The notes beneath the pieces were generated by a model. The model was given only the letters and a program-made list of their open reading frames with translations. It did no database searches and was not told the origin of the DNA. Positions 4,127-58,964 of a stretch of 64,000 nt of DNA are shown here, in pieces. Both the position numbers and the translations under genes were made by a program. The DNA is taken from contig DHGX01000004.1 of assembly GCA_002402995.1 (NCBI GenBank), forward strand, positions 246,019-310,018, read 5' to 3'. This stretch comes from Patescibacteria group bacterium UBA4787 (GTDB lineage Bacteria > Patescibacteriota > Patescibacteriia > UBA2591 > UBA4787). Every line of letters starts with the position of its first letter. Within the stretch, counting starts at the first letter, position 1.

Positions 4127-5188
4127 TCAGAAAAAATTATAAAATTTAACACGACTTAAATGTTCTTTTAAAGAATCAATTGTTATCGAAGTTAATCCGA
4201 TTCTACTAGGATCAATAACATTGATATTATTACCGTTTTTCCCGGCTAAAACAACGTAATGCCCGCCGCAAAAACATATCCCTTCGCCACATTTACTGTT
4301 TTGGCAATGACCGGGCACTGGGAGCTTTCTTATGGAAACAACCAACCAGCTACCATTATCTAAACCTTGCATAGCTTTGGCAAAATCATTTACCGTTTGT
4401 TCTCTGACTCCCCATTTTTGAGCAGCTTTGGGAGCCAACAGTTCAACATTTGTTCCGCCGCTACAATCTTTTCTTGCTCCAACTTCAATGGCATATTCAC
4501 CAACATCGCGAGGCGTAACTGATATTTCCTTGCTAGCCAAGACTATAGCCAAAGCCGTGGCGCCGCAACCAGAACTGCATAAATTACATTCTCGATTATT
4601 CTCTTCGGTATAAGCCATACTGCCCCATCGCGCATCGCATTGTTTATAATATAAACCTGCGCTTGTTTGATCGGCGATGCCATCATCAGATAATTCGCCG
4701 TCAATCGGCTCGTATTTAACTGTATACAAAGCAAGCGGTCGTAAAATAGTTAAGTTGGGATTAATGAAACCCAAAAAAAGACTAATACTTAGAATAATTA
4801 TCAAGCCCATAAAAGCGCCGGAGATTCTGGCTTTAGCGTTACTGATAGCTGGCGCGTTTCCACGCGACAAAACCCATTGAAAACCGGCAAACATAATCAT
4901 CACCACGGCCAGAATGGCTATCACGGCAACCGACCATTTATAAACAGCGATAACATAATCTCCTATCCAAGAATAGGCTATGTTGCCTTCTGTTGTAACA
5001 GGTGATTTGAATCCGCCAAAGCCCGGTATTTCAATTTGGAGGCGAGGTGTTACGATTTTTTTCTGATTTTGCGGCTGAATATTTGAATCCGTATCAGCTT
5101 TAGCCGCCTGAAACAAACAGAAAAAAACAATTATTGATAAAACAACAATTAATAATATAAATAAAAGATTTATTCGTTTGAAAAGCAT
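4127..5188 (-). CDS. TrbC/VirB2-like pilin-fold membrane protein fused to a C-terminal C39-like (papain-fold) peptidase domain
   Basis: 353 aa. A signal/TM segment is followed by two long hydrophobic helices separated by a short basic loop (YKWSVAVIAILAVVMIMFAGFQWVLSRGN...ISGAFMGLIIILSISLFLGFINPNL), which is the VirB2/TrbC pilin hairpin architecture. The C-terminal domain has Q..W..CNLCSSGCGATALAIVLA (catalytic Cys context of Peptidase_C39_2) and a later GGHYVVLAG His motif. A paralogue lies at 6586-7815. Confidence 0.5.
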   Translation of the reverse strand: MLFKRINLLFILLIVVLSIIVFFCLFQAAKADTDSNIQPQNQKKIVTPRLQIEIPGFGGFKSPVTTEGNIAYSWIGDYVIAVYKWSVAVIAILAVVMIMFAGFQWVLSRGNAPAISNAKARISGAFMGLIIILSISLFLGFINPNLTILRPLALYTVKYEPIDGELSDDGIADQTSAGLYYKQCDARWGSMAYTEENNRECNLCSSGCGATALAIVLASKEISVTPRDVGEYAIEVGARKDCSGGTNVELLAPKAAQKWGVREQTVNDFAKAMQGLDNGSWLVVSIRKLPVPGHCQNSKCGEGICFCGGHYVVLAGKNGNNINVIDPSRIGLTSITIDSLKEHLSRVKFYNFF

Positions 5189-5193
5189 ATAAT

Positions 5194-6486
5194 CTATTTC
5201 AATTTGATTGATTTCAAGTATGATGTATCTTTATCAACAAAATATAACGTGCTTTCGTCTGACGAAAGATAAAGGTTAGTAGTATTATAACTGCCCAACG
5301 CCCCTTCGGCCAAAAATGAAACTACTCCTGTTTTAAGATCAACGCGATAAAAATCGTCTTTGGCGTCATCTGCCAATTCTCGAAAAAGACCGGATCCATC
5401 CGGCAAGTTTTTCGGCACCGCGCAATATAAAGAAGCGCCGCTCGCGTTAAAAACGCATTTATCGGCCCAAGTATTTAAATTAGTGGCGATTTTATTGGCT
5501 CCGGTATTGTCGCCGCCTGTCGCATCCACAACATATAAACTGGGCCTAAAACCATTAACACTGGTATAAACGCTGTAAGCGATCTTATCTCCCTGGGGCG
5601 CCCATTCTGGCAAAAATCCCCTGCCTTCAACAATAATTGATTTATAATTTTCTCTATTCTGACCAACCAATAGAATCTCTTGTTGCCAACCGTCTCGCGG
5701 TTCACCGGTTTTAGAAAAAGCCACTACTTGACCGGCTGGCGACCAATTAACGATCACCTTGTCAGCGTTATCGCCCATTGCTTCAATCGGCGTAACTCTT
5801 GTGCCGTCGGGATTAGATACGGCCAGCCAGCGATTTTCGGGAAACTGACTATCTAGCTTAAAAGCTAAACGCGAGCCGACAGAATTCCAAGAAAATTCCG
5901 ACCAATTTTGCGGCAAAGTATATTGCTTGTCTTTGGAAAAATCATACATAATTTTAAAACCATCCGGATATTCAATAACCGCGCGATCCTTGGTCGGCGC
6001 CCAGCTGACATTTTTAACGTCAAAAAATTGTTTTTGGGAAATTAAAGTTTTTTGACCGTTTTGGTCCAGCTTATAAAATCGACTGTCGCTGCTATTATAA
6101 TAAATATTACCCATACCATCTAAAGATGGAGACAAAAAACCAACGGGATCTGCGCCCACCGGATTAATCCACGTTCTTCCACCTTCGGCGATGTCGGAAA
6201 TTTGCGGCGTCACAGGCTCTTCTTCCGGTACTGCTGGCGTCACCAGTTCTTCTTCTCCGGGCCAAACATTAAGGGGTAATCCCCTTCTAGCTTTTTCAGA
6301 AATAGACATCTGTTCCCAAGCTTCTCGTGTTACCGGTAACTTAGTAACCTGGATCGGAGTTACGACTTCTGTCGGTTGAATCGATGGTTCAGCCGCCCGA
6401 AAGAAAAAATAATACAGCAAAAAACCTATAACTACTACAAGTAAAATAAAACCAATAACTATTAATATCTTTTTTTTAGGAAACAT
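5194..6486 (-). CDS. Membrane-anchored hypothetical protein with a Pro/Glu-rich linker and a probable TolB-like beta-propeller domain
   Basis: 430 aa. N-terminal TM (KKKILIVIGFILLVVVIGFLLYYFFF), a PEEEPVTP linker, then repetitive beta-strand-rich segments (YYNSSDSRFYKLDQNGQ; WAPQGDKIAYSVY; STLYFVDKDT) reminiscent of PD40/TolB repeats. There is no catalytic signature. Confidence 0.35.
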   Translation of the reverse strand: MFPKKKILIVIGFILLVVVIGFLLYYFFFRAAEPSIQPTEVVTPIQVTKLPVTREAWEQMSISEKARRGLPLNVWPGEEELVTPAVPEEEPVTPQISDIAEGGRTWINPVGADPVGFLSPSLDGMGNIYYNSSDSRFYKLDQNGQKTLISQKQFFDVKNVSWAPTKDRAVIEYPDGFKIMYDFSKDKQYTLPQNWSEFSWNSVGSRLAFKLDSQFPENRWLAVSNPDGTRVTPIEAMGDNADKVIVNWSPAGQVVAFSKTGEPRDGWQQEILLVGQNRENYKSIIVEGRGFLPEWAPQGDKIAYSVYTSVNGFRPSLYVVDATGGDNTGANKIATNLNTWADKCVFNASGASLYCAVPKNLPDGSGLFRELADDAKDDFYRVDLKTGVVSFLAEGALGSYNTTNLYLSSDESTLYFVDKDTSYLKSIKLK

Positions 6487-6585
6487 AATGAATTAGAATT
6501 TAGAAAGTAGAAAATAAAATTAAAATATAAAATAAAAACAAAAAATAGAAAGTATGAATTAGAATTTATAATTTAGATTATTAAA

Positions 6586-7815
6586 TTAACGTAGAGACCA
6601 ACCAGTTCCTGGCTTAAAACAACAAATTCTTTTAGTTGGATCAAACCCATCGCCACAATCGGCAATATTAAGCCCCCCCGAACTTTCACAGACACTACAT
6701 AATTCTCTTTTTTCGTCTAAGTTACAACTTTTATCAGGATAAGGAGTGCACTTATTTTTAGAAAAATATCTATCTCCTGTTTCTGTTCCTGTTAATTTAA
6801 CGGTTACATAAGTGCAACCTTTTCGGGAGTGAACGACATCAAAAACTGACCCACTGCAACGCGTTCCTATTTGATTAGGAACAAAAGCGCTGGACGCAAT
6901 CATTGCTACAGGACCCAAAGGAGCAGCCACAAAAAAAGTATCAGCGCTTTGGCCGCAACTAAACTCATTGAGATCAACCTCTGGACCGCCGATAAAATAG
7001 TTTTTTAGCCCAGTTCCGTCTTCCTTAGCTAATGAAATCGTACCCGCCAACCTACATTCTGCTTTTTTAACATTATATTTAGTAGTAATATCTGGAGTCT
7101 TAGGATCCTTGGCGACATCTTCTCGCCATTTTAAGATATCAGACTGGGACACTTCAAGGTTTAATTCGCAAATAGTTCCAGCGCCGCACTCTGTACCAAT
7201 TACTTTCTGTAGTTGTCCATCGGAGGTAGTGACCATAGTGGAAACGCCGCACATCCGAGCGCCGATACGCGCATAAGCGCCTGGCTCACCAGACGGAGGG
7301 GTTGTCGTGAGGTCAAGGGGTTTATACCAACTAAATTGGGTCAATCGAATCGGAATATCCGTTGAAGCAATCTCGCGGGCAACGGGTTTAATCGTCAAGT
7401 CTTTAAATATGACCAAATTAGGATTAATAAAACTCAAAAAAGCATAAGCAAAAATAATAATCACTAAGCCCACTAAGGCGCTGGTGATCTGCGACTTAGC
7501 GCTGGTGATCGCGCTCACATTACCTCGACTGGTGATCATTTTAAAACCGGCCACCATAATCATTACTACGGCTAAAATAGCTACGGCGCTGATACCCCAT
7601 TTATAAGCCGCGATAATATAATCTCCGATACTTCGGCCTGTAATAGCGAAAAACGAACCTCCTTGTATTTTTGTTCCCGGAATAGTAACCTGTGGTATAA
7701 AATTAACGCCGCCGCTAGTTGGATTAGTTTGGGCTAAAACCGGTAAACTTAAAACGAGAAATAACAAGAAAAACAGTGTTACTAAAAAATAAATTTTTCT
7801 GTTTCGTAGGTTCAT
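6586..7815 (-). CDS. TrbC/VirB2-like pilin-fold membrane protein with a Cys-rich C-terminal extracellular extension (paralogue of 4127-5188)
   Basis: 409 aa. It has the same N-terminal module as 4127-5188 (GDYIIAAYKWGISAVAILAVVMIMVAGFKMITSRGN...ITSALVGLVIIIFAYAFLSFINPNL). The C-terminal roughly 250 aa contain many Cys (CGVS, CGAG, CSGS, CSVCESS, CGDGFDPTKRICC) but lack the C39 signature. Confidence 0.45.
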   Translation of the reverse strand: MNLRNRKIYFLVTLFFLLFLVLSLPVLAQTNPTSGGVNFIPQVTIPGTKIQGGSFFAITGRSIGDYIIAAYKWGISAVAILAVVMIMVAGFKMITSRGNVSAITSAKSQITSALVGLVIIIFAYAFLSFINPNLVIFKDLTIKPVAREIASTDIPIRLTQFSWYKPLDLTTTPPSGEPGAYARIGARMCGVSTMVTTSDGQLQKVIGTECGAGTICELNLEVSQSDILKWREDVAKDPKTPDITTKYNVKKAECRLAGTISLAKEDGTGLKNYFIGGPEVDLNEFSCGQSADTFFVAAPLGPVAMIASSAFVPNQIGTRCSGSVFDVVHSRKGCTYVTVKLTGTETGDRYFSKNKCTPYPDKSCNLDEKRELCSVCESSGGLNIADCGDGFDPTKRICCFKPGTGWSLR

Positions 7816-7978
7816 GGCATTAAAATTATCAACTAATTTACGAATCCTTTATTTACCCCGTTAGAAGTCTGTCTTTATACGATTAAACACCGCCCTCGGA
7901 CAGACTTATGTTCTTTGGTTTACCCTCGTTAGTGTCCACAAAAAATTTTTTATCAAAAAAATTTTTTGTCAAGGACTT

Positions 7979-8836
7979 CTAACGGGGTTTAAATAAATCG
8001 CCTATCGCTTTTAACCCAATTTCTATTGCTTCTAACGGGTGTGTCATATAATAAATATAAACTAAACAAATAAAAATAGCGAACAAAACAATTAAATTAC
8101 ATAAGATTACAACCCAAATCTCTAAAAGTTCTAAGGCGCCACCAACTTGTTTCGTTAAACCGGCACTGGATGACCCTCCATCACCTGCCATATCCTTGCC
8201 CATGGTAGCGCCAGTCTTGCTTGCCGTAGCCGCTGCTGCGGACGTCCCAGTCTTCAACCCACCGCCGCCGCCTTGCCACTCTTCGCCATAACGGCAGAAA
8301 TACTCTGATTTAAAAACATAACGCATAATGCCGTGAAAGTTTATATAAATCAATGGCAGAACATAATAAACAACTTTCCAGCATGCGGCTAAAGCCTTGG
8401 CCGTGCCCATTTGAGCGCCTTGTTTTAATTTATTCGTTACCTGCCCCTCATCTTGAGACAATCTCTCTTCCTCTCCGCCAAGTTTTAACGAGTCTTTGGT
8501 TTTTTGTCTGGCTAAAACTTTGGCTGATGACTCGCCTTGTCGCTGAAGCTCTAGTCGCCATCGTAGCTCCGACGAAACGGGCTCACCTCTCTGGCTCGAT
8601 TCTTCTGTTCCGCCCTCTTCAATCGCGTCATCTTCGGATCCTTCCGCCTCGTTCTGTGGCTCTGATTCTTCGCGCCCCTCCTGCCTCCTACTTAAAAGAT
8701 CTGGCAAATTATCGGTTATACTATTGCGCAGAAATTTTGGCATTTGGCCAATATTGACTCCCGCGCCTTGAAGTCTAGCGGTTGTCTTTTGGCGTTCGAG
8801 ATCGCGGACAATTCTATTTTCATTAACAGGGTTCAT
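7979..8836 (-). CDS. Hypothetical protein with an acidic N-terminal region, a Gly/Ala/Thr-rich low-complexity segment and a C-terminal TM anchor
   Basis: 285 aa ORF in the same operon as the VirB4 homologue. C-terminal hydrophobic helix WVVILCNLIVLFAIFICLVYIYY. No recognisable domain. Confidence 0.3.
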   Translation of the reverse strand: MNPVNENRIVRDLERQKTTARLQGAGVNIGQMPKFLRNSITDNLPDLLSRRQEGREESEPQNEAEGSEDDAIEEGGTEESSQRGEPVSSELRWRLELQRQGESSAKVLARQKTKDSLKLGGEEERLSQDEGQVTNKLKQGAQMGTAKALAACWKVVYYVLPLIYINFHGIMRYVFKSEYFCRYGEEWQGGGGGLKTGTSAAAATASKTGATMGKDMAGDGGSSSAGLTKQVGGALELLEIWVVILCNLIVLFAIFICLVYIYYMTHPLEAIEIGLKAIGDLFKPR

Positions 8837-8869
8837 TCAAATCAAAATATATTAATTTTTAAAAAAGAA

Positions 8870-9433
8870 CTAATCTTTGTTAGAAAAAACAATATCGTCA
8901 ATCTTCCATCCTATAGATTCTTTAACGAAATACAAAACCGCGTTTTTATAAAAAATACTTACTTTGCCACCTATAGTCTCTGTCTGCTGACAAACGGCCT
9001 CGAAAACAGCGTTATTTCCTTCTATTTTTTGCCAATTATAAGAAATAACCTTGGTAATAATCTCTTGAAAATCGATTTTATTTTGATTAACAACTGCTTC
9101 GCTCTGTTTTATTAATTTCGACGTCATAGATTCAGACAACTCTTGAAGATTGATAATCGCGTTTTCTTTAGTATAACTTCCATAACGCTCAATAAACGAA
9201 CGAGCGATGGGCGTTAATTCGTTTTTGGTTATTTCTTCCGCGCTTAATAACGGCAGTTTATTCTCCGCTATTGATCCGTTGGTAGGAACATTCTGCTGAT
9301 TATTGGCTAAATTATCTTGCACGCGGATCTCTTTGGGCGCGGATTTTTCAGAATACCACAAACTGAGAAGATAAATTCCCAATCCTAAAACAGCGATAGC
9401 TAAAGCAATAATTAAAATTTTCTTTTTGGACAT
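8870..9433 (-). CDS. Hypothetical N-terminally anchored protein
   Basis: 187 aa. N-terminal TM (ILIIALAIAVLGLGIYLLSLWY). No recognisable catalytic motifs. Located in the T4SS-like locus. Confidence 0.3.
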   Translation of the reverse strand: MSKKKILIIALAIAVLGLGIYLLSLWYSEKSAPKEIRVQDNLANNQQNVPTNGSIAENKLPLLSAEEITKNELTPIARSFIERYGSYTKENAIINLQELSESMTSKLIKQSEAVVNQNKIDFQEIITKVISYNWQKIEGNNAVFEAVCQQTETIGGKVSIFYKNAVLYFVKESIGWKIDDIVFSNKD

Positions 9434-9473: not shown

Positions 9474-9625
9474 TATTAGAAAACGCAAAACTTAAAACGA
9501 AAAGCTCAAAAGAACAGTGTAAAATTCAAAACTTTAGCATATAAATACGCTCGTTTTTTTAATTCTATTTTAGGTTTTGAGCTATTGTTTTGCATTTTGC
9601 GCTTTTAGCTTTACGCTCACATCCT
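9474..9625 (-). repeat. Internally deleted copy of the roughly 460-bp four-helix-bundle gene cassette
   Basis: The sequence from 9541 to about 9625 is roughly 90% identical to 13318-13400. The sequence 9474-9535 matches 12944-12995. The roughly 305 bp of ORF body between them is absent. Confidence 0.6.
9506..9595 (-). pseudogene. Truncated remnant of a four-helix-bundle protein gene: the first 20 codons joined directly to the 3' flank
   Basis: Minus-strand translation from the ATG at 9595 gives MQNNSSKPKIELKKRAYLYA, near-identical to the N-terminus of the intact gene at 12995-13375 (MQNNNSKPKIELKKRVYLYA). It then runs into sequence matching the intact gene's 3' flank and stops after 29 codons. 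The flanks 9474-9535 and 9596-9625 match 12944-12995 and 13376-13402. Confidence 0.6.
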
Positions 9626-9629
9626 GTTA

Positions 9630-11645
9630 CTAAATATTCAAATCTTCTTTAGTTAAGTCTTCTGACATATCCCAGTCCACCTTTGTCGCTTCTGCTACAG
9701 GCTTCTCTGTGTTTTGTTTTTGCGATTGAGTAACGGCGGCTTTTTCTTCGGCCACCAATGATTCGGAAAACTCTTTTTTAGCTTTTTCTATTTCTAAAAT
9801 TTTTCTCGGATCGGTAGTGACTAACTGATCTTCCGAGTAAGAAGCTATTACTTTAATAGCGGCGTGCTTCGCGCCGGCGAAGAATATACCTTCGCCCACC
9901 CCGCACTCTAAAAGCAAATATTTTTCTCCTTCGGTCAACATAAATGTCGAGGCCACATTCTCAATGGCTGCTGGCGCTTGTTTTAATAAAAGCTGCAAGG
10001 CTGAATTGTTGATAATCGCCTTGCCATAAGAGGATGACAAGAAATCATTAACATCCTGCGTAATTGTAGTTATACCAAGATAATATTTACGGCAACGCTT
10101 AACCAAAGCAAAAATAAAACGGGCAGAATCTTCGTGCTGCATCAGCCACCATGCCTCGTCTATCACCAATATTCTTTTTTTCATCCGCGAACGAACAATA
10201 TTCCAAATATAATTTACGATGGTATAAATAGCGACTGGCCTCAATTCGTCTTCCAGATCGCGCACACTGAAAACGACCAATTGATTATCTATTTCCACGT
10301 TGGTCTGATGGTTTAACAAGCCGGAAAACGTTCCTTCTGTATATTTTTTTAAGCGCTCAGCTAAATCGCCGGCTCCTTCCATTCCCTCTAAAACTTGTTC
10401 TAAGTCGGAAAGCGTAGGCATAGTAACTTTAGATAAATCAACGCCCGGGACAATATCATTTTTAGCATAAGACTCCAAAAGCGCCCGATCCATAACAGAA
10501 TCTTCTCGAGGCGTAAATTGGCGGACTCCTCTCTCGTCGGGCGAGGCGATCATAATTTTTAACAAACCCTTTAGGATAATAACCGCGGAACGAATAAGAT
10601 TAGCCGTATCTACTTCACCCGTACTGGGCCGAGGAATATCAAATGGATTAATGCGGCTTTCTGAAGTTAAAGATATGTTAACAAAAGTGCCACCAACCGC
10701 GTCAGACAAATATTTATATTCTTTTTCCGGATCAATTATAATCACATCTGTACCGAGCATTAAGCTCCTCAAAATTTCCAACTTAATCGCATAGCTTTTC
10801 CCTGAGCCAGAAGTGGCAAAAACAACCATATTTCCATTTTGCAAACTAAAACGATCGAAAAGAATCAAACTATTATTGTGACGATTTATGCCGTATAAAA
10901 CCCCATCGTTTGATGTTAAATCAGACGAGATAAAGGGAAAAGAAGAAGCAATAGGCGAACTATTCATATTAAAATTGATCATTAACTCGTCGTTTCCCAA
11001 AGGAAGCGTCGAATTAAAGCCCTGTTCGGCTTGATATAAAACTCTCTTAGTATAAATCAGTTTTGAACCGAATAAAGTTTCTATTTTTTCAGAAGTATTA
11101 TCAAGATCTTTCGGATTATCGGCATAGATAGTAACATACAAAGCGAACTGGAAAAAATGTTCAACGCCAGTTGTTAAATCGTCTCTTAATTTTTCAATGT
11201 CTCTTAAAGCTGTTTCTTTTAAAGGATCTCGTGGCATGCCTTTCTCCTGTTCAGCGGCTATTTCTTGCTCTAAATTACCGGTTTTCTTCTGTAATTGTTT
11301 TAAAACTTCACCGGAAGGTACAGGATAAAAAAACATACCGATATCTAGAGGTCCATTAAAATTAATAACGGGCGCGAACCAACCAACGGCAATATAACGC
11401 GGATAAGTAATCACAAATATTGTTCTCACGTATTTATCTCCCAATTGAAGATAATTCGGCGTAATTCTCATAGAAGCCGGAGCAACAAGATCGCGCACCG
11501 AAACAACGCCGGCCAAATAAGCTTTTTCTTGTTCTAACGCCTCTTTGGTCTCTGTTGTTTTTATTTTTTCTGATATTTCTTTCTCTTGTTTTTTTATTTC
11601 TTCAGTCGGCGATTTAGTATTAATTGTCCTCGGATCAAAAACCAT
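9630..11645 (-). CDS. Type IV secretion system ATPase, VirB4/TrbE/TraC family
   Basis: 671 aa. Walker A VVFATSGSGKSY. Walker B and hydrophobic stretch RILVIDEAWWLM. The N-terminal domain is conserved with the CagE/TrbE/VirB4 family (DIGMFFYPV..., FQFALYVTIYADN). Confidence 0.8.
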   Translation of the reverse strand: MVFDPRTINTKSPTEEIKKQEKEISEKIKTTETKEALEQEKAYLAGVVSVRDLVAPASMRITPNYLQLGDKYVRTIFVITYPRYIAVGWFAPVINFNGPLDIGMFFYPVPSGEVLKQLQKKTGNLEQEIAAEQEKGMPRDPLKETALRDIEKLRDDLTTGVEHFFQFALYVTIYADNPKDLDNTSEKIETLFGSKLIYTKRVLYQAEQGFNSTLPLGNDELMINFNMNSSPIASSFPFISSDLTSNDGVLYGINRHNNSLILFDRFSLQNGNMVVFATSGSGKSYAIKLEILRSLMLGTDVIIIDPEKEYKYLSDAVGGTFVNISLTSESRINPFDIPRPSTGEVDTANLIRSAVIILKGLLKIMIASPDERGVRQFTPREDSVMDRALLESYAKNDIVPGVDLSKVTMPTLSDLEQVLEGMEGAGDLAERLKKYTEGTFSGLLNHQTNVEIDNQLVVFSVRDLEDELRPVAIYTIVNYIWNIVRSRMKKRILVIDEAWWLMQHEDSARFIFALVKRCRKYYLGITTITQDVNDFLSSSYGKAIINNSALQLLLKQAPAAIENVASTFMLTEGEKYLLLECGVGEGIFFAGAKHAAIKVIASYSEDQLVTTDPRKILEIEKAKKEFSESLVAEEKAAVTQSQKQNTEKPVAEATKVDWDMSEDLTKEDLNI

Positions 11646-11761: not shown

Positions 11762-12442
11762 TTACTCCTCTATTCTTAATTCATTTATATCTGTTAATTT
11801 TTGAGTTTGCGCTTCGAGTGGATTATAAGTTTCGTATAATAATTCAATAACGCTTTGGGTATCTAACGGCACAGCCTTCAAACCCATGCTGGCAAGCGCG
11901 CTAATTACACCATCAACACGGCGAAAAAGCACCTCTCGATAATCTTCAAATTTTTCTCTTTTTAATTTGATAAATGTGCCGACGGAAAATACGTCTTGCA
12001 AGCGAGAAAAAAATCCTCTTTTTTTATCACCGGCCGGATTATAGGGAACCAATAAATAAAATCTTTTGCTCATAATTTCTCCTAATTCTACTAACTCGCC
12101 CACGAAATCAATATAATCGGAGATCTGGACACGCAATAAATCATTCTTTTGATTCTGGCGCAAAGTTTTCAATTTTTCCAAATATGGCTCAATGACAAAT
12201 TTTCTCGATTGAATAACTATTTGTATTGGAAATTCTAAAGTATTTAAAAATTGAACATAAGCTTGAACAAGCGCCTCTTGTTCTTCTTGCGATTTTAAAC
12301 CAAAATTAATAGAAGAAACCAATAAAATAGCTCTAAGTGTCCCGTCTTTCAAGACAACGATATCTTTTTTTACTTCGGAAATATCCAAATATTGCTGTGT
12401 CGAAGTTGATAATTTTTTTCCTGCTAATTTCTCGGATTTCAT
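11762..12442 (-). CDS. Hypothetical cytoplasmic protein, a possible T4SS accessory component
   Basis: 226 aa, directly upstream of the VirB4 homologue in the same orientation. The segment DISEVKKDIVVLKDGTLRAILLVSSINFGLKSQEEQEALVQAY loosely resembles VirB4 N-terminal-domain sequence. There is no ATPase motif. Confidence 0.25.
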   Translation of the reverse strand: MKSEKLAGKKLSTSTQQYLDISEVKKDIVVLKDGTLRAILLVSSINFGLKSQEEQEALVQAYVQFLNTLEFPIQIVIQSRKFVIEPYLEKLKTLRQNQKNDLLRVQISDYIDFVGELVELGEIMSKRFYLLVPYNPAGDKKRGFFSRLQDVFSVGTFIKLKREKFEDYREVLFRRVDGVISALASMGLKAVPLDTQSVIELLYETYNPLEAQTQKLTDINELRIEE

Positions 12443-12471: not shown

Positions 12472-12978
12472 TCAATCTTCTTTGTAAGCGCCACCCGTAT
12501 CTATTAATAGAGACAAATGGGAAAGCTTAGCGGTACTTAACGGTTTACGCGGTATCTCAATGTCGATTTTAGTTTTTTTTGCCCAATCTTTTTCTTCAAT
12601 TTTCGCTACGATTGGCCGCCAAATTCTTAATCCGGGTTTTCTGGCAGTTTGGAGAACGTTTAAAAAAAAGAAATGAATCGGCTTGCCGTTAACTCGACCG
12701 AAAGCCAACAAGCCAAAAATGATCAAAATTATTATTCCCTCCACTAAAAATAAACTAAAATCAGATGATTTATAGGCGATAAGCTCCAAAGCAGCCCCAA
12801 TAATTAAAATAACAAATTGTCTTGGTGTTAAGGGACCTAAAATATGAGGCTCAATATCGATAAATTGTGGAACGATAAATTGCATAGAAAGATTAGAATT
12901 TAGTAAGTAGAAAGTAGAAAATAGAATCAACGAATAATGAATTATTAGAAAGCGCAAAACGTAAAGCGAAAAACTCAA
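12472..12978 (-). CDS. Small membrane protein, possibly a VirB3/PrgI-like T4SS component
   Basis: 168 aa with 2-3 predicted TM helices (PRQFVILIIGAALELIAY; GIIILIIFGLLAFG). It is positioned upstream of the VirB4 homologue, as VirB3 usually is. The call rests mainly on position. Confidence 0.3.
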   Translation of the reverse strand: MSFSLYVLRFLIIHYSLILFSTFYLLNSNLSMQFIVPQFIDIEPHILGPLTPRQFVILIIGAALELIAYKSSDFSLFLVEGIIILIIFGLLAFGRVNGKPIHFFFLNVLQTARKPGLRIWRPIVAKIEEKDWAKKTKIDIEIPRKPLSTAKLSHLSLLIDTGGAYKED

Positions 12979-12994
12979 AATAACAGCGTAAAAT

Positions 12995-13375
12995 TTAAAA
13001 CTTTTTTTTTCCCCTTAATGTTAAAATACTGGAGCCAAGAATATTAGCAAGCTCTGTTGTTTCTTGAAGCAAGATTTCAGTTTTACTTCTGTCGGCTTTA
13101 GCAGAATCTCTTAACAACCCCAGCCAGAATTTACTTTCATTGGCGGATTTTAACGCGTAATTAAAAAAATTGGTAAAATCTCTTTTCGTGCTTCCCGCTT
13201 GAGCTTCTATAATGTTCGCGCCAATACTTGTAGCGCTTCGTAAAAGCTGTTTAGCGATTATTTGCGCGGTAAAATCATTTTTGCTCAAACCGTCAATAAA
13301 TTTAATAATATCCAAAGCGTATAAATATACTCGTTTTTTTAATTCTATTTTAGGTTTTGAGTTGTTATTTTGCAT
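12995..13375 (-). CDS. Four-helix-bundle protein (TIGR02436 / 23S rRNA intervening-sequence protein family)
   Basis: 126 aa. The sequence LDIIKFIDGLSKNDFTAQIIAKQLLRSATSIGANIIEAQAGSTKRDFTNFFNYALKSANESKFWLGLL is characteristic of this family. The gene sits inside the T4SS-like operon and is flanked by sequences repeated at 9474-9625. Confidence 0.75.
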   Translation of the reverse strand: MQNNNSKPKIELKKRVYLYALDIIKFIDGLSKNDFTAQIIAKQLLRSATSIGANIIEAQAGSTKRDFTNFFNYALKSANESKFWLGLLRDSAKADRSKTEILLQETTELANILGSSILTLRGKKKF

Positions 13376-15115: not shown

Positions 15116-17839
15116 CTAAGTCTCTTCGCCCTTAAGTTCTTTTAATTTGTCGGCTAATTCTTTAATTTCTTTAGTCAGTCTTTCTTTCTCGGGTAGGTCA
15201 GCTGTCGGATCTAATTTTTTAAGCTGAGAGCTCAAATCATTAAATTTACTAGTCAAATTTCCGATTGCCTCAACATTCACGTCGCCTTCGTATCCGAATG
15301 TTTTAGTTTGCAATCTCATCAACCACGCTATATTATTTAATGCTTTTTCCATATTTTTAAAATCCTGTCTTAGAGATGCCTGACCAAGTTTGTCTAAATA
15401 TTTTTGCATATCTTTATCCCCAAAAATCTGATCAATAACCGGCTGAGGTGTTTCAGCCGCTTCTTTTTTCGCCATGGAAAATTTTATATCGTGGTTATCC
15501 AGCGCTTCTTGAGGAATATCGTTTCGTTCAACCCAACTCTTAACGGATTTACCGGTGTGTTTTTCTACATACTGATCAAATCCGAGATCGGTTTGGCGTT
15601 TGCTTACTTGATCTTTATGCAAGTCTTTTAATTTCAATAAGGCTGCCCCGCCCTGAGTTTGCGTTAAAGCGCTGCCCAGTAAGGCTGCTAATTTTTTCTC
15701 GTCACTAACCGTTTCTTTGGGTATTTTTTTTGCCGTATCCTCGTATCGCGCAACATTAGCTTTCTGGACCCATGTTAATTCTTCAGCGCCGAAGCGACTA
15801 ACGACTTCGCCCTGAGCAGTCGCCCGGCGAGCCGTTTCTAATCTACTAGTTAATTCATTAATGGACTTGCTTAATTTATCGGCATCTTTAATTAATATCA
15901 CAGCTTCGTCGTTCTTTCCTTCTTTGCGAAGCGTCGCGGCTTTAATCTCAATATCAGTTCTCTCAACTTGCAATTTATTAATTTCAGCATTAATTTCGTC
16001 TGGCATTAAATTATATTTAACAGCCTCTTGTCTTTTTTGATCCCTTGCTTGTTTAAGTTGGGTAATTTCTTTTTGGGCTTCAATATATTCTGGTTTTTCG
16101 CGCGTCTCTTTTTCTAATTGTCCTTTGGCCTTTACTTGATCCCATTTTTCCATATATTCATCTGCTTCGGGAGTCCCTGGTTCAACACCCTTGCTTCTCA
16201 ATTCAGTATCGATTTCTGCCCGGGTATAACCCGGCTCGGCGCCTACCATTCTCTTGTCTTTAATCTCGATTGCTCTTTCGTTAATTTGAGCGTCTGACAA
16301 CTTAAATGCTTGTTCTTTCTCTTGAATTTGTTTGTCAAGATCCTCAACAGACTCTTCTTTTTTGCCGAAAATCCCCTTGATACCCTTAACGGCCGCGGGC
16401 ACTGGAGCGCGGAGCGCTTGACCAGCCACGTCTCGCCTTTTGGCCATTCGTTCGTATCTCTGCGCGTCTTGCTCTTTCAATTTGGCTTGAGCTTCTAAGG
16501 CTCGTCCTTCAGTAGTATCAGAACCTCCTTTAATCTTGGCTCGTTCTCTTAATGCTTCTGCTTCACCGCGACTATCCTTTGACATATCATAATACTTTTT
16601 TCCTCCCCGAGCCTGCATTTCACCCAACACGCCAAGCGTCCCGGCTTTAAGTTCACCTTTCAATTGAGTAGGTAACTCGCCTACCCGTTGACCAAGTCGC
16701 GCGAAAGGCGCCATACGCGCTCTTTTACGAGCGCTGCGACTCTCTTGCCAACCGGCTTTAGCCGCCTGATATCTATCTTTGATTGGTTTAAATGGCATAT
16801 CCACGGCGCCTTGACCCCACTGCTTAAGCTTGCCAGACATTTTGCCGGCGAATCCTCCACCATAAGCGCTTAATTTTTGCGCCTCGGTTATGGAAGTAAA
16901 AAGCAAGAAAATACCAACGATATAAGCCAATAAATTCTCAGAACTGGCGATTGCGCTGGCTGTAGCTGAAATCTTGGTACCCGCGGTATCTACCGCGACA
17001 GGAAGGAGTTTACTGCCCTCCTGCACTACGCTTAAAGAAAGCCAGATAAAAAAAGCTAATAACGGGCCCACCACCACCTCTTTTCCAAATTCTTCCCACC
17101 AGTTGCTACCTATGCCGGGAATATTTATCGGCAAAGCGTTTTTGACAAAAGCCAAAGGCGACACCATCACTAAAAACCAAAGATGAATAATGCGATAAAG
17201 TAGAATCACCAACATCGTAAATAAAGCGAATAAAGCAACGACGGACAGAACAAGCGCTAAAATTAAAGCTCCTACTTTATTAACATTAGCGCCTGCTGCG
17301 GCTACACTGGTATCCATTGACATAAGCTGAGACAAGCCCAGCATATTAATAAAATTTCCTTCAGCCGCGTCTTTAAAAGCATTAACAAAAGTCAGCATTA
17401 TCACTTGAGAAAAATCAATAATAATGCCGCAAATCAATTTGCTGAAGTTAACCAAAATAGCCGCCATAAATACCGCGCCGAGCAGCTTAGTATAAGAATA
17501 TTTCTCAATCTTCAAAACCGTAGCGAAGGCGATAAAAATCATAATCAAAACAAACAACATATTACAGATGTCGCGAATAATCACCCAACCGATGCTAACC
17601 ACTCTTGAATTTATGAAATCATTATATTGCGCGACGTCAATCAAAAGCCTGACTACAACGGCTATTAGACCTCCGAGTAATTCAATTATGGGTATTGCTA
17701 TCCAAGCCAAAACATCGGCTACGGCGGTTCCGATGTTTGCTGCTGCCAGACGAGGAAATAAAACAAAGACAGCGGTTAATAAAACCGCGACAATCGTAGG
17801 AAAGATTAATTTAATTTTTCGTTGCTTGATATGATTCAT
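15116..17839 (-). CDS. VirB6/TrbL-like polytopic membrane protein with a roughly 550-aa Lys/Glu-rich coiled-coil C-terminal extension
   Basis: 907 aa. The N-terminal roughly 330 aa contain about 7 hydrophobic helices (IVAVLLTAVFVLFP; IAIPIIELLGGLIAVVVRLLI; MLFVLIMIFIAFATVL; LLGAVFMAAILVNFSKLICGIIIDF; ALILALVLSVVALFALFTMLVILLY; LLAFFIWLSLSVV; IVGIFLLFTSI), as in TrbL/VirB6. The remainder is charged and heptad-like (KEQAFKLSDAQINERAIEIKDKR...KELADKLKELKGEE). Confidence 0.4.
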   Translation of the reverse strand: MNHIKQRKIKLIFPTIVAVLLTAVFVLFPRLAAANIGTAVADVLAWIAIPIIELLGGLIAVVVRLLIDVAQYNDFINSRVVSIGWVIIRDICNMLFVLIMIFIAFATVLKIEKYSYTKLLGAVFMAAILVNFSKLICGIIIDFSQVIMLTFVNAFKDAAEGNFINMLGLSQLMSMDTSVAAAGANVNKVGALILALVLSVVALFALFTMLVILLYRIIHLWFLVMVSPLAFVKNALPINIPGIGSNWWEEFGKEVVVGPLLAFFIWLSLSVVQEGSKLLPVAVDTAGTKISATASAIASSENLLAYIVGIFLLFTSITEAQKLSAYGGGFAGKMSGKLKQWGQGAVDMPFKPIKDRYQAAKAGWQESRSARKRARMAPFARLGQRVGELPTQLKGELKAGTLGVLGEMQARGGKKYYDMSKDSRGEAEALRERAKIKGGSDTTEGRALEAQAKLKEQDAQRYERMAKRRDVAGQALRAPVPAAVKGIKGIFGKKEESVEDLDKQIQEKEQAFKLSDAQINERAIEIKDKRMVGAEPGYTRAEIDTELRSKGVEPGTPEADEYMEKWDQVKAKGQLEKETREKPEYIEAQKEITQLKQARDQKRQEAVKYNLMPDEINAEINKLQVERTDIEIKAATLRKEGKNDEAVILIKDADKLSKSINELTSRLETARRATAQGEVVSRFGAEELTWVQKANVARYEDTAKKIPKETVSDEKKLAALLGSALTQTQGGAALLKLKDLHKDQVSKRQTDLGFDQYVEKHTGKSVKSWVERNDIPQEALDNHDIKFSMAKKEAAETPQPVIDQIFGDKDMQKYLDKLGQASLRQDFKNMEKALNNIAWLMRLQTKTFGYEGDVNVEAIGNLTSKFNDLSSQLKKLDPTADLPEKERLTKEIKELADKLKELKGEET

Positions 17840-17852
17840 TATAGTATTTTAA

Positions 17853-17890
17853 CCCCAGTAGTAGAAACTTCGTTTCACTACGGGGCAGGC
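17853..17890. repeat. Short hairpin repeat CCCCAGTAGTAGAAA...TTCACTACGGGGCAGGC, related to the TIRs of the 139-bp element
   Basis: The sequence ccccagtagtagaaacttcgtttcactacggggcaggc forms an imperfect inverted repeat. A near-identical unit is at 49147-49192. The arms match the TIRs at 37765 and 46232 (ccaggtagtagaaa / ttcactacctgg). Confidence 0.5.
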
Positions 17891-17959
17891 ATTTTAATAT
17901 GATAACATTTTTACGCTTTGTGCTCTATGCTCCATGCTTTGCGCTTTACGCTTTTTGTA

Positions 17960-20900
17960 TTACGGCTTAAGTAAAATTGAACCGCTGAACGAAGTGCCAT
18001 TCGAACGAACATCGCATTTATTGTCGCTACTATTAGAATCTTCGCAACAATTATCATCGCCCACGTGATTTCCGCCATTGCACCAGCCCCAATTATCCTT
18101 AACATAAACTGTGGGCTTGAATGAACATTGAGCCGGGCCTTCGCAGTGATAAAGATGGTTAAATTGGAAATAAGTGGGCGTGCAAGCATTTGGCACATTG
18201 CCGAAATTCAAATAACTCGTTCCATCTCTCTGATAGACCTCGTCGTTTTGACTTATGCCTAAATTTAAACAATCGGCGTTGGACGAACAACACATTGGCT
18301 TATGATTCTTGGCTAACATAGTATTAGAACCAGAAGACAATGGCTTGCCATCATCCCAATCAACCATAACTTCGCGAATCGGCATATGATTTTTATCCGC
18401 CCAAGCGTAAAATTTAAGCACGGCCGGATAAATACTGCCGCTACCAGTAAGATTATTTGTATCTTCGTTGTTAATGGTTATTTTCCCTATGGCGCCCAGA
18501 GAACAGCTTCCTTCGCCACTTAATTCTCCGCCGGTGCATTTGACTGAAGCGACTTTGGGAGCGGAATGACCAGTGACAGACAAACTTAATTGACTATCGT
18601 CAGGACTCCAAAGCTGGGCACCGTTAGAATACTGTCTAGTGGTAGTATTAAAACTATAGGCCTCGTAACTTTTAGCAAATAAGTTTTTAAGGGAGTCTTT
18701 GCTTGTGTAAACGAAACCATGCCGATTATCGCAGATTGTTCCCGAGACTATTAATGTAGAAGGTTTGGGAGAGCCGCTCGAACCATACGGTAAACAAATA
18801 GTAGCATAGAAGGCGTCATCAATTATTGCCGTAGTTTCATAACCCTTAAGACGATTAGTCCATGCTTTAGTAAAATTATTCGCGTCAGCAATCTTAGCTA
18901 CATAGCTTGCACCATTTTTTATGGAAACAATTATTTGACTAATAGAGGTTGTGCCTGTATGTTCGCTATTATCACAAAGTTGTATTCCTATACGCAACCT
19001 ACCGCCTGAATCAGCTCCCGCAGAAACGCCTACAAAATTGTTACCATCACTACAATTACCGCTCGGCTGAGTAAGATCAAAATTATTTGAGATATTCAAA
19101 TTTACCCACCCACTACCAGTAATTTCATCATCTCCCCCTCCCGAATCGTCACCACAAACAGTCTTTCCATAATTACCGCCCCATTCTTGAAAATACAAAC
19201 TAACTTGATCAATCTGGTCAAAATAAATTGGGATATCATTGTTATTTACCCAACTCACTACACCATAATTATCGACTTCATAATAACCGAGTATATTAGC
19301 ATCTGGACGACCACATACGCCATAACTATTAGATCCATCAAGAGTAAATTGCAAGCCACTACTAATATTTTGAGCGGTGCTGGCACCAAAAGCGGAATAC
19401 CATACGCTTATATTAGTATAATATCCTGCGCTTTGATATTGATTATAAATATCCGGATCGCCGACTGCGGCGCTGCCTGGCCACCAAGTCAAACAAGAAT
19501 TGAGTTCGCCTGGTACGGATAAATCTCTTTCCAAACAATAACCGCGCTGACCGATAGCGGTTGTTTTTTTACTCAAACGCGTACAGCCACTATTATACGG
19601 ATCCTGACTTGGCGCACACTCTTCGCCGAGTTTCGCGTCGCCACACTGCCCTTCAGCTGAACAAATACCGAGCCACTGGTCTTCAATATAAGTAAGATAA
19701 TTAACCGTGCCAGAATACTCGCCTTTTTTATAAGCGCACTGGCAATCTCTGTATAAATAACTTTGTGTATTATTATCATCGATCGGTTGACAAATATTGA
19801 TACCTTTATATTTATCGCTTAAGCCCGGAGCAAACGGCGAATCAATTTCCGGGTACAAACGGCAAGTTTTATCAATTACTCGGCCTCTGCCATCAACACC
19901 CGCATCGTCAGAACATTCACCGGGAGTTCCATCATCTAAAAGACCGCACTGTAACGCATTAGAACCTTTGACATCACAAAATCCACCGAAATTATCAATC
20001 TTGCTATCAATATTACACTTGAATGCGCAAGCTGCATTTTCTACGCCACAGTCTGTGTTGCTAGCGCAAGGACTACCTTCATAACTATCTTTTTTATAAC
20101 TGTTGGCGCTACAAATTTTCGCTGTATTTGCCTGACAAACACCGTTGCCACATTGCAAAGAATCAGTACAACTATTCCCGCTTAAGTCTATATAACCATT
20201 GCCATCGCAAAGTTTGGCACAAGTACTAGTATCACAACTCATACCTTCGGGGCAAGTACTAGAACAACCATAACCGCACCAAAACAAGGCCATACGAAAA
20301 TCTTTAGTGGCAATAGAAAAATCATTATTATTTTTTAAACGCATACTAGTGTTTCCACTACTGCCGGCACCGCCTTCAACACAAAAGCCGCAACAAGCAG
20401 CAGGTGGTAGACAAATTCCGCCAGCGCCGCAATCGGCATTAATGCTGCAGCCAGTAGTATTGCTAACATATTGGCGACTGCCAGAAGAACAAGTCCAAGA
20501 AGTTCCGGCTGGATATTCACAATTGCCTTGCCCCAAACCGTTAGTGCCAATGCAATCTGCGTCAATATTACAAGTATTACCAGCAGTTGAAATCGGAGCG
20601 CTATTTCCAGCCGAACAAGTCGTGCCAACGCAAGAACCACTGCCGCAATCGGCATTAGTAGCGCAAGACTCGCCAATCAGCGAAGTCTTGCCACTAATAC
20701 AACGAAGTTCTCCGCGGAGACTGGAAGTTAATTTATATATATTCTCATTATGTTCCCGATAAAGCTTGGGCGCCAAATTTTCAACCGGATAATAGTTATA
20801 TAAAGAATAACCGCTATAATCCCTGCCTGCCCAAGAAACATCGCGCGCTTTATATTCAGCTTCGTTTAAAATATCAGGATTATTAGTAACCACCGGATGA

Positions 20901-31790: not shown

Positions 31791-33092
31791 TTGTTCGATT
31801 ATCGACGTATAGCAATAAAGATTATGGATATTAATAACGCCCAAAAACAGTCTATTGACGGCATTAACTCGCCTATTCATAAAAAAAATAAAATCAGAAT
31901 TAATCTCCTCAAAATTTGGGGTGGTATTCGTTCGTTTTTAATATATTCATCAGGGCCTATTCTTGTCGCTGTATTTAAAACCGTCAAATATTTAAAAGCG
32001 CAGACTCGTTTAATAAACTTCCAAGAAATATTCGCTGTTTTAAATAAAAAACAATTAATTTGGGTGGTTGTTTTAGCTATTACGTTTATATCATTTAGCG
32101 AAAATATCAATTCAAGCTCATTCGAGCAGAATAAGAACATCTTCCCCATTTTAATGTTGATTAAAAGCAATAAAATAGAAAATAAAATTATAACCGTAGA
32201 AGAAAAGATCGCCTATGTCGACGAAAAAACCACGGACAACCTGTCATACTTCAAAATAGCCGCTGCCTTAGATACCAATATTCCTGTTGTAAAAACCCCT
32301 GATAATAATACTACGGCCATGGGCGGCAGCGCGCTTATTAATCCAGACGCCCAAGACTATGAAGATGGTTATTCGGCGATGCGCGCCAATATTGAAAATT
32401 ATACTGTTCAACCCGGTGATACAATAAGTTCAATCGCCGAAAAATTTGAAATCACTCCAAAAACAATTACTTGGGAAAATAAATTATCTCTTAACGCGCC
32501 GTTGAAAGTCGGGAAAGAGTTAATAATTCTACCTATTAGCGGCGTCACGCATAAAGTAAAAAGCGGAGACAATGTATCTAAGATCGCCAAACTTTATCGA
32601 GCTAATCCAGAAGATATTATGGATTTTAATGATTTGGGCGGCGAATCAGATATTTTTGCCGGAGATATTTTAATCATTCCCGAAGGAACGCCACCGCCAC
32701 CGCCAGCCCCAATACCGACAGTTAAAAAATATGCCGACAAAACAGAGACCTTAAATACCAAAGACCTATCCAAGCCAGAAGGAAACAACTGCCATATTTT
32801 CGTTCCCGGCCAATGCACTTGGTATGTTGCTAAAAAAAGATGTGTTCCGTGGACAGGTCACGCTAAGTCTTGGCTATCCAACGCAAAAGCGCTTGGGTTC
32901 TCAACCGGCAAAACGCCGGCCTTGGGCGCGATAATTAACCTAAAAGAATCCTGGTATGGTCACGTTGGTTATGTAGAAGCCTTTGATGATCAAACAGTCA
33001 CTTTCTCCGAGATGAATCATCTTGGCCCGTGGAAAGCTTCTCGCCGCACCATTTCTTTGACAGATAAAAGAATTACAGGATATATTTATTAA
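31791..33092 (+). CDS. Secreted peptidoglycan hydrolase with 2 LysM domains and a C-terminal CHAP (Cys/His amidohydrolase/peptidase) domain
   Basis: 433 aa (alternative start at 31824). LysM: YTVQPGDTISSIAEKFEITPKTI and HKVKSGDNVSKIAKLYRANPEDI. CHAP: CHIFVPGQCTWYVAKKR...WYGHVGYVE. TM near the N-terminus. Confidence 0.75.
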   Translation: MFDYRRIAIKIMDINNAQKQSIDGINSPIHKKNKIRINLLKIWGGIRSFLIYSSGPILVAVFKTVKYLKAQTRLINFQEIFAVLNKKQLIWVVVLAITFISFSENINSSSFEQNKNIFPILMLIKSNKIENKIITVEEKIAYVDEKTTDNLSYFKIAAALDTNIPVVKTPDNNTTAMGGSALINPDAQDYEDGYSAMRANIENYTVQPGDTISSIAEKFEITPKTITWENKLSLNAPLKVGKELIILPISGVTHKVKSGDNVSKIAKLYRANPEDIMDFNDLGGESDIFAGDILIIPEGTPPPPPAPIPTVKKYADKTETLNTKDLSKPEGNNCHIFVPGQCTWYVAKKRCVPWTGHAKSWLSNAKALGFSTGKTPALGAIINLKESWYGHVGYVEAFDDQTVTFSEMNHLGPWKASRRTISLTDKRITGYIY

Positions 33093-58720: not shown

Positions 58721-58914
58721 AGACTGTATTATATAGAAAAATCTTTAGTTAGCAACATTTTTTTATTAATGAAAAATTAATCTTAGAAAAATAAATAATT
58801 ACTAAATTAGCTCATTCGAAAATTAATGTCCGCCTTACTCCCTATGTCTCAAATAAAAGATGGCAATCTAACAGAAAATTTTGACTACTCAATATTAAAT
58901 ATAAGGCTAAAATA

Positions 58915-58950
58915 AAATACGGCGTTTTTGGCCGTATTTTATACAAAATT
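58915..58950 (-). terminator. Rho-independent terminator downstream of the pilin gene
   Basis: aaaatacggcgtttttggccgtatttt. 9-10-bp stem (aaaatacggc / gccgtatttt) with flanking T-run on the minus strand. The 17-mer aatacggcgtttttggc also occurs at 37746-37762. Confidence 0.55.
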
Positions 58951-58964
58951 TAATTCTTAGTTTA

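Follow-up and report, generated by a model that had tools for sequence, protein, structure and literature searches.

What might two predicted pilin genes be doing with large domains fused to their C-terminal ends? The question is raised by a 64,000-nucleotide (nt) stretch of contig DHGX01000004.1 (positions 246,019 to 310,018) from Patescibacteria group bacterium UBA4787, hereafter called the window, in which two paralogous genes that we call A and C, separated by a third gene, B, lie beside a gene cluster for a type IV secretion system (T4SS). An earlier sequence-only reading had proposed that A and C encode conjugative pilins with added ectodomains, that the one on A is a C39-like peptidase, and that a protease might thereby be displayed on a pilus or at its base. 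The three open reading frames (ORFs) lie exactly where that reading had placed them, and their parts, including predicted transmembrane (TM) helices, are as follows.

4127-5188, minus strand: gene A, a 353-amino-acid (aa) ORF comprising a signal peptide, a VirB2-like hairpin, a linker and a C39_2-like cysteine peptidase ectodomain.
5096-5188, minus strand: A signal peptide, residues 1-31 (hydrophobic at residues 8-26), predicted Sec type, with cleavage between AKA and D predicted from the AxA motif.
4745-4966, minus strand: A hairpin, residues 75-148, with a first TM helix, a basic loop SRGN..AKAR and a second TM helix ending INPNLTIL.
4655-4744, minus strand: A linker, residues 149-178, modeled at low confidence, with the invariant positions G164-E165-x-S167-D168.
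4130-4654, minus strand: A head, residues 179-353, a papain-fold Peptidase_C39_2-like ectodomain.
4640-4642, 4565-4567, 4259-4261 and 4211-4213, minus strand: A catalytic codons for Gln183, Cys208, His310 and Asp326, respectively.
5194-6486, minus strand: gene B, a 430-aa ORF, N-terminally anchored and weakly TolB-like.
6586-7815, minus strand: gene C, a 409-aa ORF comprising a signal peptide, a VirB2-like hairpin and a 14-Cys ectodomain.
7408-7629, minus strand: C hairpin, residues 63-136, placed by A/C comparison, hydropathy and the module profile.
6589-7407, minus strand: C ectodomain, residues 137-409, Cys-rich.

The annotations of A at NCBI, ENA and Logan start at Met25 and give 329 aa, which omits the signal peptide, and that at JGI gives 353 aa; the 353-aa form, with its proper signal sequence, is matched by a homologue (P0002; we use such P numbers for individual proteins and L numbers for the relatives' loci).

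We conclude that A and C are members of T4SS_pilin, a Patescibacteria-specific family of VirB2-like proteins. Their common architecture, in which a Sec signal peptide precedes a membrane hairpin with a basic cytoplasmic loop and a C-terminal domain is held outside, is well supported. Residues 75-185 of A align with residues 63-168 of C at 46% identity across 111 aa (E=4e-28), and the motifs YKW, AVIAILAVVMIM.AGF, SRGN and FINPNL that had been quoted for the two proteins are all present. The homology of the N-terminal module therefore stands, but its proposed length of about 120 aa does not: the conserved part spans roughly 75-110 aa, corresponding to the hairpin and its flanks, and the signal segments are dissimilar. 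According to hydropathy, each protein has an N-terminal hydrophobic signal segment (with a predicted cleavage site between VLA and Q in C) followed by two more hydrophobic helices, and the AlphaFold2 (AF2) model of A has helices at residues 74-107 and 112-142. A profile made from 17 modules finds exactly two copies in the window, those of A and C. Across these 17 modules the loop between the helices averages 2.9 Lys plus Arg residues versus 1.2 Asp plus Glu, and the N-terminal flank is net acidic. Because the loop is net positive and the hairpin flanks are net acidic or near neutral, the heads are predicted to face outward; these charges fit a topology with the loop in the cytoplasm, both termini out and the C-terminal domains of A and C outside the cell, as the sequence-only reading had anticipated.

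Assignment to the family rests on both similarity and gene context. Protein C matches PF18895 (T4SS_pilin) at 28.6 bits (E=1.5e-6), above the 26.6-bit cut-off, and A scores just under it at 22.7 bits (E=1e-4); we count A in the family despite this score because it is a clear paralogue of C. The companions expected of T4SS_pilin genes, namely virB4 together with PrgI/VirB3-like and TraC/TrsD-like genes, are all found next to A and C, and the arrangement is syntenic in a relative, L001. Thus, the hairpin earlier called the hallmark of conjugative pilins does belong to a pilin family with appropriate neighbours, but direct similarity to TrbC/VirB2 falls short of significance. Protein C reaches only 15.0 bits against PF04956 (TrbC/VirB2; cut-off 27.9 bits, E=0.029) and A has no match, and an hhalign comparison of the module profile with a sequence that we take to be Agrobacterium VirB2 (it matches PF04956 at 2.8e-17) yields E=0.056 and a probability of 1% over 16 columns. 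Filing A and C under PF04956 was rejected, this comparison being non-significant. Searches of Protein Data Bank (PDB) sequences returned no solved pilin with the module profile and nothing meaningful with the fusion profile. Some relatives do bridge the two families: among the 91 best-scoring module proteins taken into a Pfam scan, every one of which matches T4SS_pilin, three also match PF04956 (best 6.7e-8), as do two pilins of Southlakia epibionticum (SEML1_0018/0019). The predicted link of the A/C module to canonical VirB2 is therefore transitive only. Judged by hydropathy, charge and the AF2 model, A and C share with canonical TrbC/VirB2 the signal peptide, two TM helices and short positive cytoplasmic loop with termini outside. 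They depart from it in size, the small mature subunit of about 70-100 aa being replaced by mature products of about 320 aa (A) and 380 aa (C), with heads of about 200-270 aa.

The head of A was proposed to be a Peptidase_C39_2 domain, and this identification holds. Residues 180-327 match PF13529 at 30.4 bits (cut-off 24 bits; 6.6e-7), the motif CGATALAIVL holds Cys208, and GGHYVVLAG holds His310. When A is aligned with eight homologous fusions that are 43-86% identical, Gln183, Cys208, His310 and Asp326 are invariant in all nine sequences, as are eight further Cys residues (A has 10 Cys in total) and the GExSD motif of the linker. The homologue in L005 also keeps the Cys, His and Asp, within CSSGCGPT, NGHY and DPSR. 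The AF2 model of the head is confident, with a predicted local distance difference test (pLDDT) score of 80-90 that drops below 50 at residues 139-171, and Foldseek matches this model to the C39-like peptidase 3erv at 9.5e-6 and also to the wall isopeptidase PeiR. Assignment to the C39 leader peptidases proper (PF03412) was rejected, given a score of 18.2 bits versus a 22-bit cut-off, the lack of an ABC transporter and a predicted extracytoplasmic location. We conclude that A carries an intact cysteine peptidase of papain fold, with Gln, Cys, His and Asp all in place and its other Cys residues probably paired in disulfides; judging by the catalytic residues, the enzyme looks active. A survey of phage lysins names C39_2 as one of the catalytic modules used by phages that infect Gram-positive bacteria (PMC8223927).

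Two invariant Cys clusters lie beside the predicted active site: CxxCxxxC (residues 201-208, including the catalytic Cys208; 4565-4588) and Cx4Cx4CxC (residues 295-307; 4268-4306). Both fall in low-confidence loops of the model and could form either disulfides or a metal site. Elsewhere in the window a thioredoxin-fold, membrane-anchored protein with a CPHC motif is encoded at 52338-52928 (minus strand), and DsbA-like genes lie directly beside pilin-hydrolase genes in L007 (9296-9997) and L009 (1348-1983). These genes fit with disulfide formation in Cys-rich heads.

The fusion of a pilin hairpin to a C39 domain is rare. It was found in about nine proteins of a 5.8-billion-protein collection, and strict motif patterns recovered it in two of 185,579 species-representative genomes. 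In both of these genomes the next gene downstream of the fusion is of RadA size (449-450 aa), and in L005 its sequence confirms it as RadA. When the head of A was used by itself in a profile search, the only additions were P0174 and P0175, non-pilin relatives of 29-34% identity from short contigs.

The head of C is of another kind. It had been credited with 20 Cys residues, but the protein has 14, all at residues 189-399. Its homologues comprise P0012, P0158 and P0018 only, and an AF2 model of C built from five sequences (pLDDT 42) was unusable. Most likely, C carries a binding or adhesive head.

If the hairpins are constant and the heads are not, then close relatives should reveal where one part ends and the other begins. 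One such comparison is with L001, a contig of 84 kb whose synteny with the window extends from the VirB6-like gene to radA-mreC-mreD, with 84-91% identity in the flanking DNA. In gene A itself, DNA similarity to L001 is limited to the region encoding the signal peptide and hairpin (4745-5065, 84%) and ends at codon 148, just after INPNLTIL. The protein encoded at A's position in L001 (P0010) accordingly has a hairpin that is 90% identical to that of A and an unrelated head (20% identity), which displays the VanY/M15-type motifs HxxxGxGVD and EAWHFE. In L006 the A-type gene retains its C39 head, and the C-type protein (P0017) joins an 88%-identical hairpin to an unrelated Cys-rich head. A distant C39 fusion (P0005) exhibits the opposite imbalance, its head being 55% and its hairpin only 33% identical to those of A. 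Because P0010 and P0017 have swapped heads and P0005 departs in the other direction, hairpins and heads appear to have been shuffled independently. As these comparisons show, the heads are exchangeable cassettes joined just past the INPxL end of helix 2.

Two small sequence elements were also noted near these genes. A short intergenic repeat occurs at 1359-1470 of the window and at 6689-6779 and 11120-11230 of L001, where one copy is upstream of the C orthologue and the other starts at the P0010 stop codon, in an enlarged gap before radA. The copy at the P0010 stop might mark the recombination that exchanges cassettes. Upstream of C, an element of about 144 nt (7845-7992, minus strand) is bounded by terminal inverted repeats CCCCGTTAGAAGTC ... 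GACTTCTAACGGGG, has a predicted fold of -52.6 kcal/mol (z=-7.3) and contains a promoter-like site (TTGACA-16-AAAAAT). A 92%-identical copy lies elsewhere in L001 (18545-18688), between secE and nusG, and Rfam yields no match to it. It may be a small mobile element or one that carries a promoter.

How common are such heads? A HMMER scan with the module profile found 84,546 cluster representatives at E<=1e-3, of which 22,659 are at E<=1e-10. Among the 69 best-scoring single-module representatives, a sample biased to the subfamily of the query, the median extension past INPxL is 217 aa, the extension exceeds 100 aa in 58, and the majority are Cys-rich. The statement that pilins carry no extra domain is thus sound for proteobacterial VirB2 but not for the PF18895 family. 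A comparison of pilin-only with fused versions had also been called for, and long, Cys-rich tails prove to be usual among the best-scoring relatives, whereas the pilins SEML1_0017-0019 of S. epibionticum are short. Since a module with a large ectodomain is so common among these relatives, and since pilin arrays have been published, the arrangement is not an isolated novelty.

Among the 91 proteins scanned with Pfam, SLT heads occur in six, Peptidase_M15_4 heads in two, and VanY, NlpC/P60, CHAP and SLT_2 heads in one each. Further relatives carry Amidase_2 (P0023 and P0024), weakly matching VanY/M15 domains (P0010 and P0011) or an SLT domain combined with a GDSL esterase (L009), and in P0023 the hairpin is also preceded by an endonuclease/phosphatase-family domain. 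Every recognisable enzyme located C-terminal to the hairpin is thus of a predicted peptidoglycan-active type. The best matches also include proteins of up to 1775 aa with 2-17 tandem hairpin modules (P0027-P0033, P0044 and others), which belong to the same family, either as polyproteins or as membrane proteins with several hairpins.

Gene B, which sits between the two pilin genes, had been described as encoding a membrane-anchored beta-propeller. The anchor is evident as an N-terminal TM helix (residues 7-25), but the propeller is indicated only by a weak TolB match (E=1e-6, 28 bits) well below the 343-bit cut-off. Orthologues of B (38-39% identity, E ~1e-96) lie upstream of pilin-hydrolase genes in L007, in the order B, DsbA-like, pilin-Amidase_2 and radA, and in L009, in the order B, DsbA-like, pilin-SLT-GDSL, pilin-Amidase_2 with the N-terminal endonuclease/phosphatase-family domain, and recG. 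These arrangements define a 'B plus pilin-hydrolase' module.

Taken together, these observations lead us to lean, if only slightly, towards an explanation in which A and C are VirB2-like anchors with outward, exchangeable heads, that of A cutting peptidoglycan. The head of A would most likely cleave peptide bonds of peptidoglycan, making A the tethered counterpart of the VirB1/CHAP-type wall hydrolases needed by single-membrane T4SSs, and it could make an opening for the apparatus in the cell's own wall, break through that of the host cell on which the epibiont sits, or do both. We favour this substrate because an equivalent head at the same locus in L001 and all C-terminal enzyme heads of the family resemble wall hydrolases, and also because S. 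epibionticum has separate hydrolases, the T4SS cluster of the window has no separate VirB1-like gene, and the fold matches PeiR. VirB1 is missing from most Patescibacterial genomes with T4SS loci, according to one study (PMC12102498). The rapid replacement of heads between close relatives suggests a function in contacts with other cells rather than in housekeeping. The long forms might be in the pilus, at its base or tip, or might simply stay in the membrane, although we can only infer this placement; for the idea that a protease is displayed on a pilus we found no support.

Several considerations weigh against this explanation. The putative assignment of A as a wall hydrolase is guilt by association: we found no Peptidase_C39_2 member that is established to act on peptidoglycan, the function of C39_2 is treated as open in a review of papain-like enzymes (PMC10318531), and the closest solved folds of the head include double-glycine leader peptidases and papain-like toxins alongside PeiR. 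None of the Patescibacterial T4SSs has been shown to make a pilus, and they are credited only with the 'potential to elaborate conjugative pili' (PMC12857230); a head of about 200 aa on each subunit might not fit sterically into a VirB2-type filament. Furthermore, no VirB4 gene occurs within 10 kb of the B and pilin-hydrolase genes in the more distant relatives L007 and L009, where radA or recG and DsbA-like genes adjoin, and A in the window also abuts radA-mreC-mreD. Because the L007 and L009 modules stand apart from any nearby VirB4, the case for A having to act with the T4SS is weakened, and a T4SS role is not proven.

The same evidence bears on other readings of gene A. Its head could be a true protease acting on proteins or peptides, or a leader peptidase, which we consider unlikely. 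The PF03412 score is below its cut-off, the domain is extracytoplasmic by prediction and lacks the ABC-transporter fusion, unlike the C39 domains of transporters, and no leader-peptide genes were seen among the cluster ORFs listed. Moreover, the equivalent head in the sister genome resembles an M15/VanY-type D-Ala-D-Ala peptidase, an enzyme without protein substrates. It is more likely that the peptidase of A is one of several interchangeable wall-hydrolase heads than a C39-type leader-peptide protease. A yet more doubtful proposal takes A to be a housekeeping autolysin that uses the hairpin as a mere anchor and works with its wall-elongation neighbours outside the T4SS. The gene order lends this some appeal: mreC and mreD are immediately downstream of A, PBP2 is present in a relative, and pilin-hydrolase genes stay beside radA or recG in L004, L005, L007 and L009 even where VirB4 is not nearby. 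However, replacement of a Cys peptidase by a metallopeptidase despite 84-91% flank identity would be unusual for a housekeeping enzyme, the anchor comes from a T4SS-linked family, C, B and A are tightly spaced directly downstream of the VirB4 cluster, and the window has a conventional LysM-CHAP hydrolase elsewhere.

We regard as quite improbable that the peptidase processes its own protein, cutting at the invariant G164/E165 motif of the linker to free a mature short pilin. C-terminal processing of propilins is known for RP4 TrbC and VirB2, which would make such a cut analogous to the C-terminal trimming of TrbC/VirB2, and GExSD is invariant inside an otherwise disordered linker. Yet this motif moves together with the C39 cassette and is lacking in C, P0010 and P0011, pilins with amidase, SLT, M15 or Cys-rich heads would have no such processing, and the residue before the Gly is variable, unlike in double-glycine sites. 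A toxin-immunity reading was weakened by the lack of an immunity gene downstream, where radA follows A after 38 nt, with the same result in L001, L002, L005 and L007. Going beyond our preferred explanation of anchors with outward, exchangeable heads, one could imagine the pilins as a polymorphic surface weapon and adhesin system, although we offer this as speculation that will probably not hold. A constant, polymerisable hairpin would carry heads swapped by recombination at INPxL to suit the wall chemistry and surface of various host bacteria, these heads being peptidoglycan peptidases, amidases, lytic transglycosylases and Cys-rich binders, and the T4SS would serve as a modular drill whose filament or channel opens the host wall.

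The remainder of the locus supplies the T4SS context for these genes. The window has a G+C content of about 38%, and nearly all of its genes are on the minus strand. Going upstream from C on that strand, two small membrane proteins are followed by VirB4, TraC-like and PrgI/VirB3-like genes and then by the following order of other genes.

7979-9433, minus strand: two small membrane-anchored proteins (285 aa and 187 aa), identified as ORFs with TM segments between the pilin genes and VirB4.
9630-11645, minus strand: VirB4-like ATPase (Pfam P-loop_TraG 2.8e-28, AAA_10 2.6e-11).
11762-12442, minus strand: TraC-like protein of 226 aa (TraC_F_IV 0.028; the L001 orthologue is annotated PF26593 TraC-like).
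12472-12978, minus strand: PrgI/VirB3-like protein of 168 aa (Pfam PrgI 1.5e-5).
12995-13375, minus strand: four-helix-bundle gene of the 23S_rRNA_IVP family (1.6e-18), between the PrgI-like gene and a 557-aa gene.
15116-27271, minus strand: a 907-aa polytopic membrane protein with a coiled-coil tail and a 3103-aa Cys-rich protein, both identified as ORFs.

The genes for the 285-aa and 187-aa proteins are syntenic in L001, and Pfam and NCBIfam scans gave no match to either product. The gene of the 23S_rRNA_IVP Pfam family, upstream of which the 557-aa, 907-aa and 3103-aa genes follow on the same strand, lies in L001 at 9527-9886, between B and the gene at A's position, and thus appears to move about within the locus. 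The 907-aa protein is VirB6-like by position only, the Pfam scan giving no VirB6 match. At the far end of the cluster, the secreted and very Cys-rich 3103-aa protein (17960-27271, minus strand) contains a CBM_4_9 carbohydrate-binding domain (9.8e-10) and could be a giant adhesin. Among the cluster genes scanned, neither a relaxase nor a coupling protein was seen, and a PHROGs scan of A, B and C gave no match.

Genes C, B and A are closely packed just downstream of the VirB4 cluster, the ATG of A lying 5 nt beyond the stop codon of B, and radA, which begins 38 nt past the stop codon of A, is followed by mreC and mreD. Promoter and terminator scans found sites no more often than in shuffled sequence, and therefore our view of operon structure is based on gene spacing alone. 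About 4.5 kb past the end of the T4SS cluster, a plus-strand gene (31791-33092) encodes a LysM-LysM-CHAP wall hydrolase, the sole other hydrolase seen, and so the genome has a separate autolysin candidate. The window also contains type IV pilus genes (49423-50634 and 57935-59471, minus strand) that are distinct from the VirB2-like genes; these include a type IV pilin with an N-terminal methylation motif (4.9e-9), and the adjoining prepilin-peptidase-like and PilM-like ORFs were assigned by eye only.

Patescibacterial T4SS pilin arrays are already known as a kind of system. Loci with VirB2-like pilins have been identified by PF04956 and PF18895 in 1,948 assemblies (PMC12102498), and arrays of such pilins are described by Quinonero-Coronel et al. 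2025 and Wang et al. 2023 (PMC12102498, PMC10633639). S. epibionticum cannot grow on its host without the pilin array and the T4SS (PMC10633639; reviewed in PMC12857230), and its hydrolases SEML1_0006 and SEML1_0007 are described as peptidase and lysozyme homologues that epibiotic growth requires (PMC12102498). The searchable text and supplement passages of this published work make no mention of pilin ectodomains, enzyme fusions or cassette swapping; as far as the searched literature extends, the fusion of pilins to hydrolases, the wide occurrence of large heads and the exchange of cassettes are undescribed.

These features matter since, in the sole system tested, epibiotic growth cannot proceed without the Patescibacterial T4SS, and recent reviews single out the pilin arrays as its oddest feature. 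Many of the 'pilins' would in fact be anchors for big outward heads, with all enzymes among these heads predicted to be wall hydrolases and with heads exchanged between close relatives at a fixed junction, which suggests how ultrasmall bacteria might pass a host wall and how host range might evolve. In addition, pilin counts based on PF18895 only merge short pilins, enzyme fusions and multi-module polyproteins.

A and C can be compared with several known systems. They share with canonical TrbC/VirB2 (Agrobacterium VirB2 and RP4 TrbC) the signal peptide, the two-helix hairpin, the short basic loop with both ends outside and the VirB4 cluster, but direct similarity is not significant, the mature proteins are 3-4 times larger with a globular C-terminal domain, and the organism is single-membrane. 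The job proposed for A would be like that of the VirB1-type hydrolases (pIP501 TraG and pCF10 PrgK, each SLT plus CHAP), namely local peptidoglycan cleavage for a T4SS. CHAP is likewise a papain-superfamily Cys-His enzyme, and some sister pilin modules bear SLT or CHAP heads, whereas A itself has no sequence similarity to SLT or CHAP and uses a pilin hairpin as its anchor. With Peptidase_C39_2 and the C39 double-glycine peptidases (3erv, ComA and PCAT1), A has in common the fold and the Gln/Cys/His/Asp arrangement, but it is predicted to be extracytoplasmic, has eight extra invariant Cys residues and is not fused to an ABC transporter. Polymorphic toxins (CdiA-CT, Rhs, and type VI and type VII secretion effectors with peptidoglycan-hydrolase tips) similarly pair a constant N-terminal module with variable C-terminal enzymes, the junction here being sharp at INPxL, and the fold of A matches papain-like CdiA-CT toxins; unlike these, A has no immunity gene and its head would be tethered to the producer's own membrane. 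Another counterpart is the S. epibionticum pilin array (SEML1_0014-0019), with which the locus shares the PF18895 hairpin, VirB4, PrgI/VirB3 and a large polytopic protein. There, the retrieved pilin genes SEML1_0017-0019 are short (381-417 nt, encoding about 126-138 aa) and show no hint of an extra head, and the hydrolases of the T4SS cluster are separate proteins, SEML1_0006 (lysozyme-like and cysteine proteinase domains) and SEML1_0007 (M15B-like), whereas here both pilin genes carry a head, and one of these heads is an enzyme.

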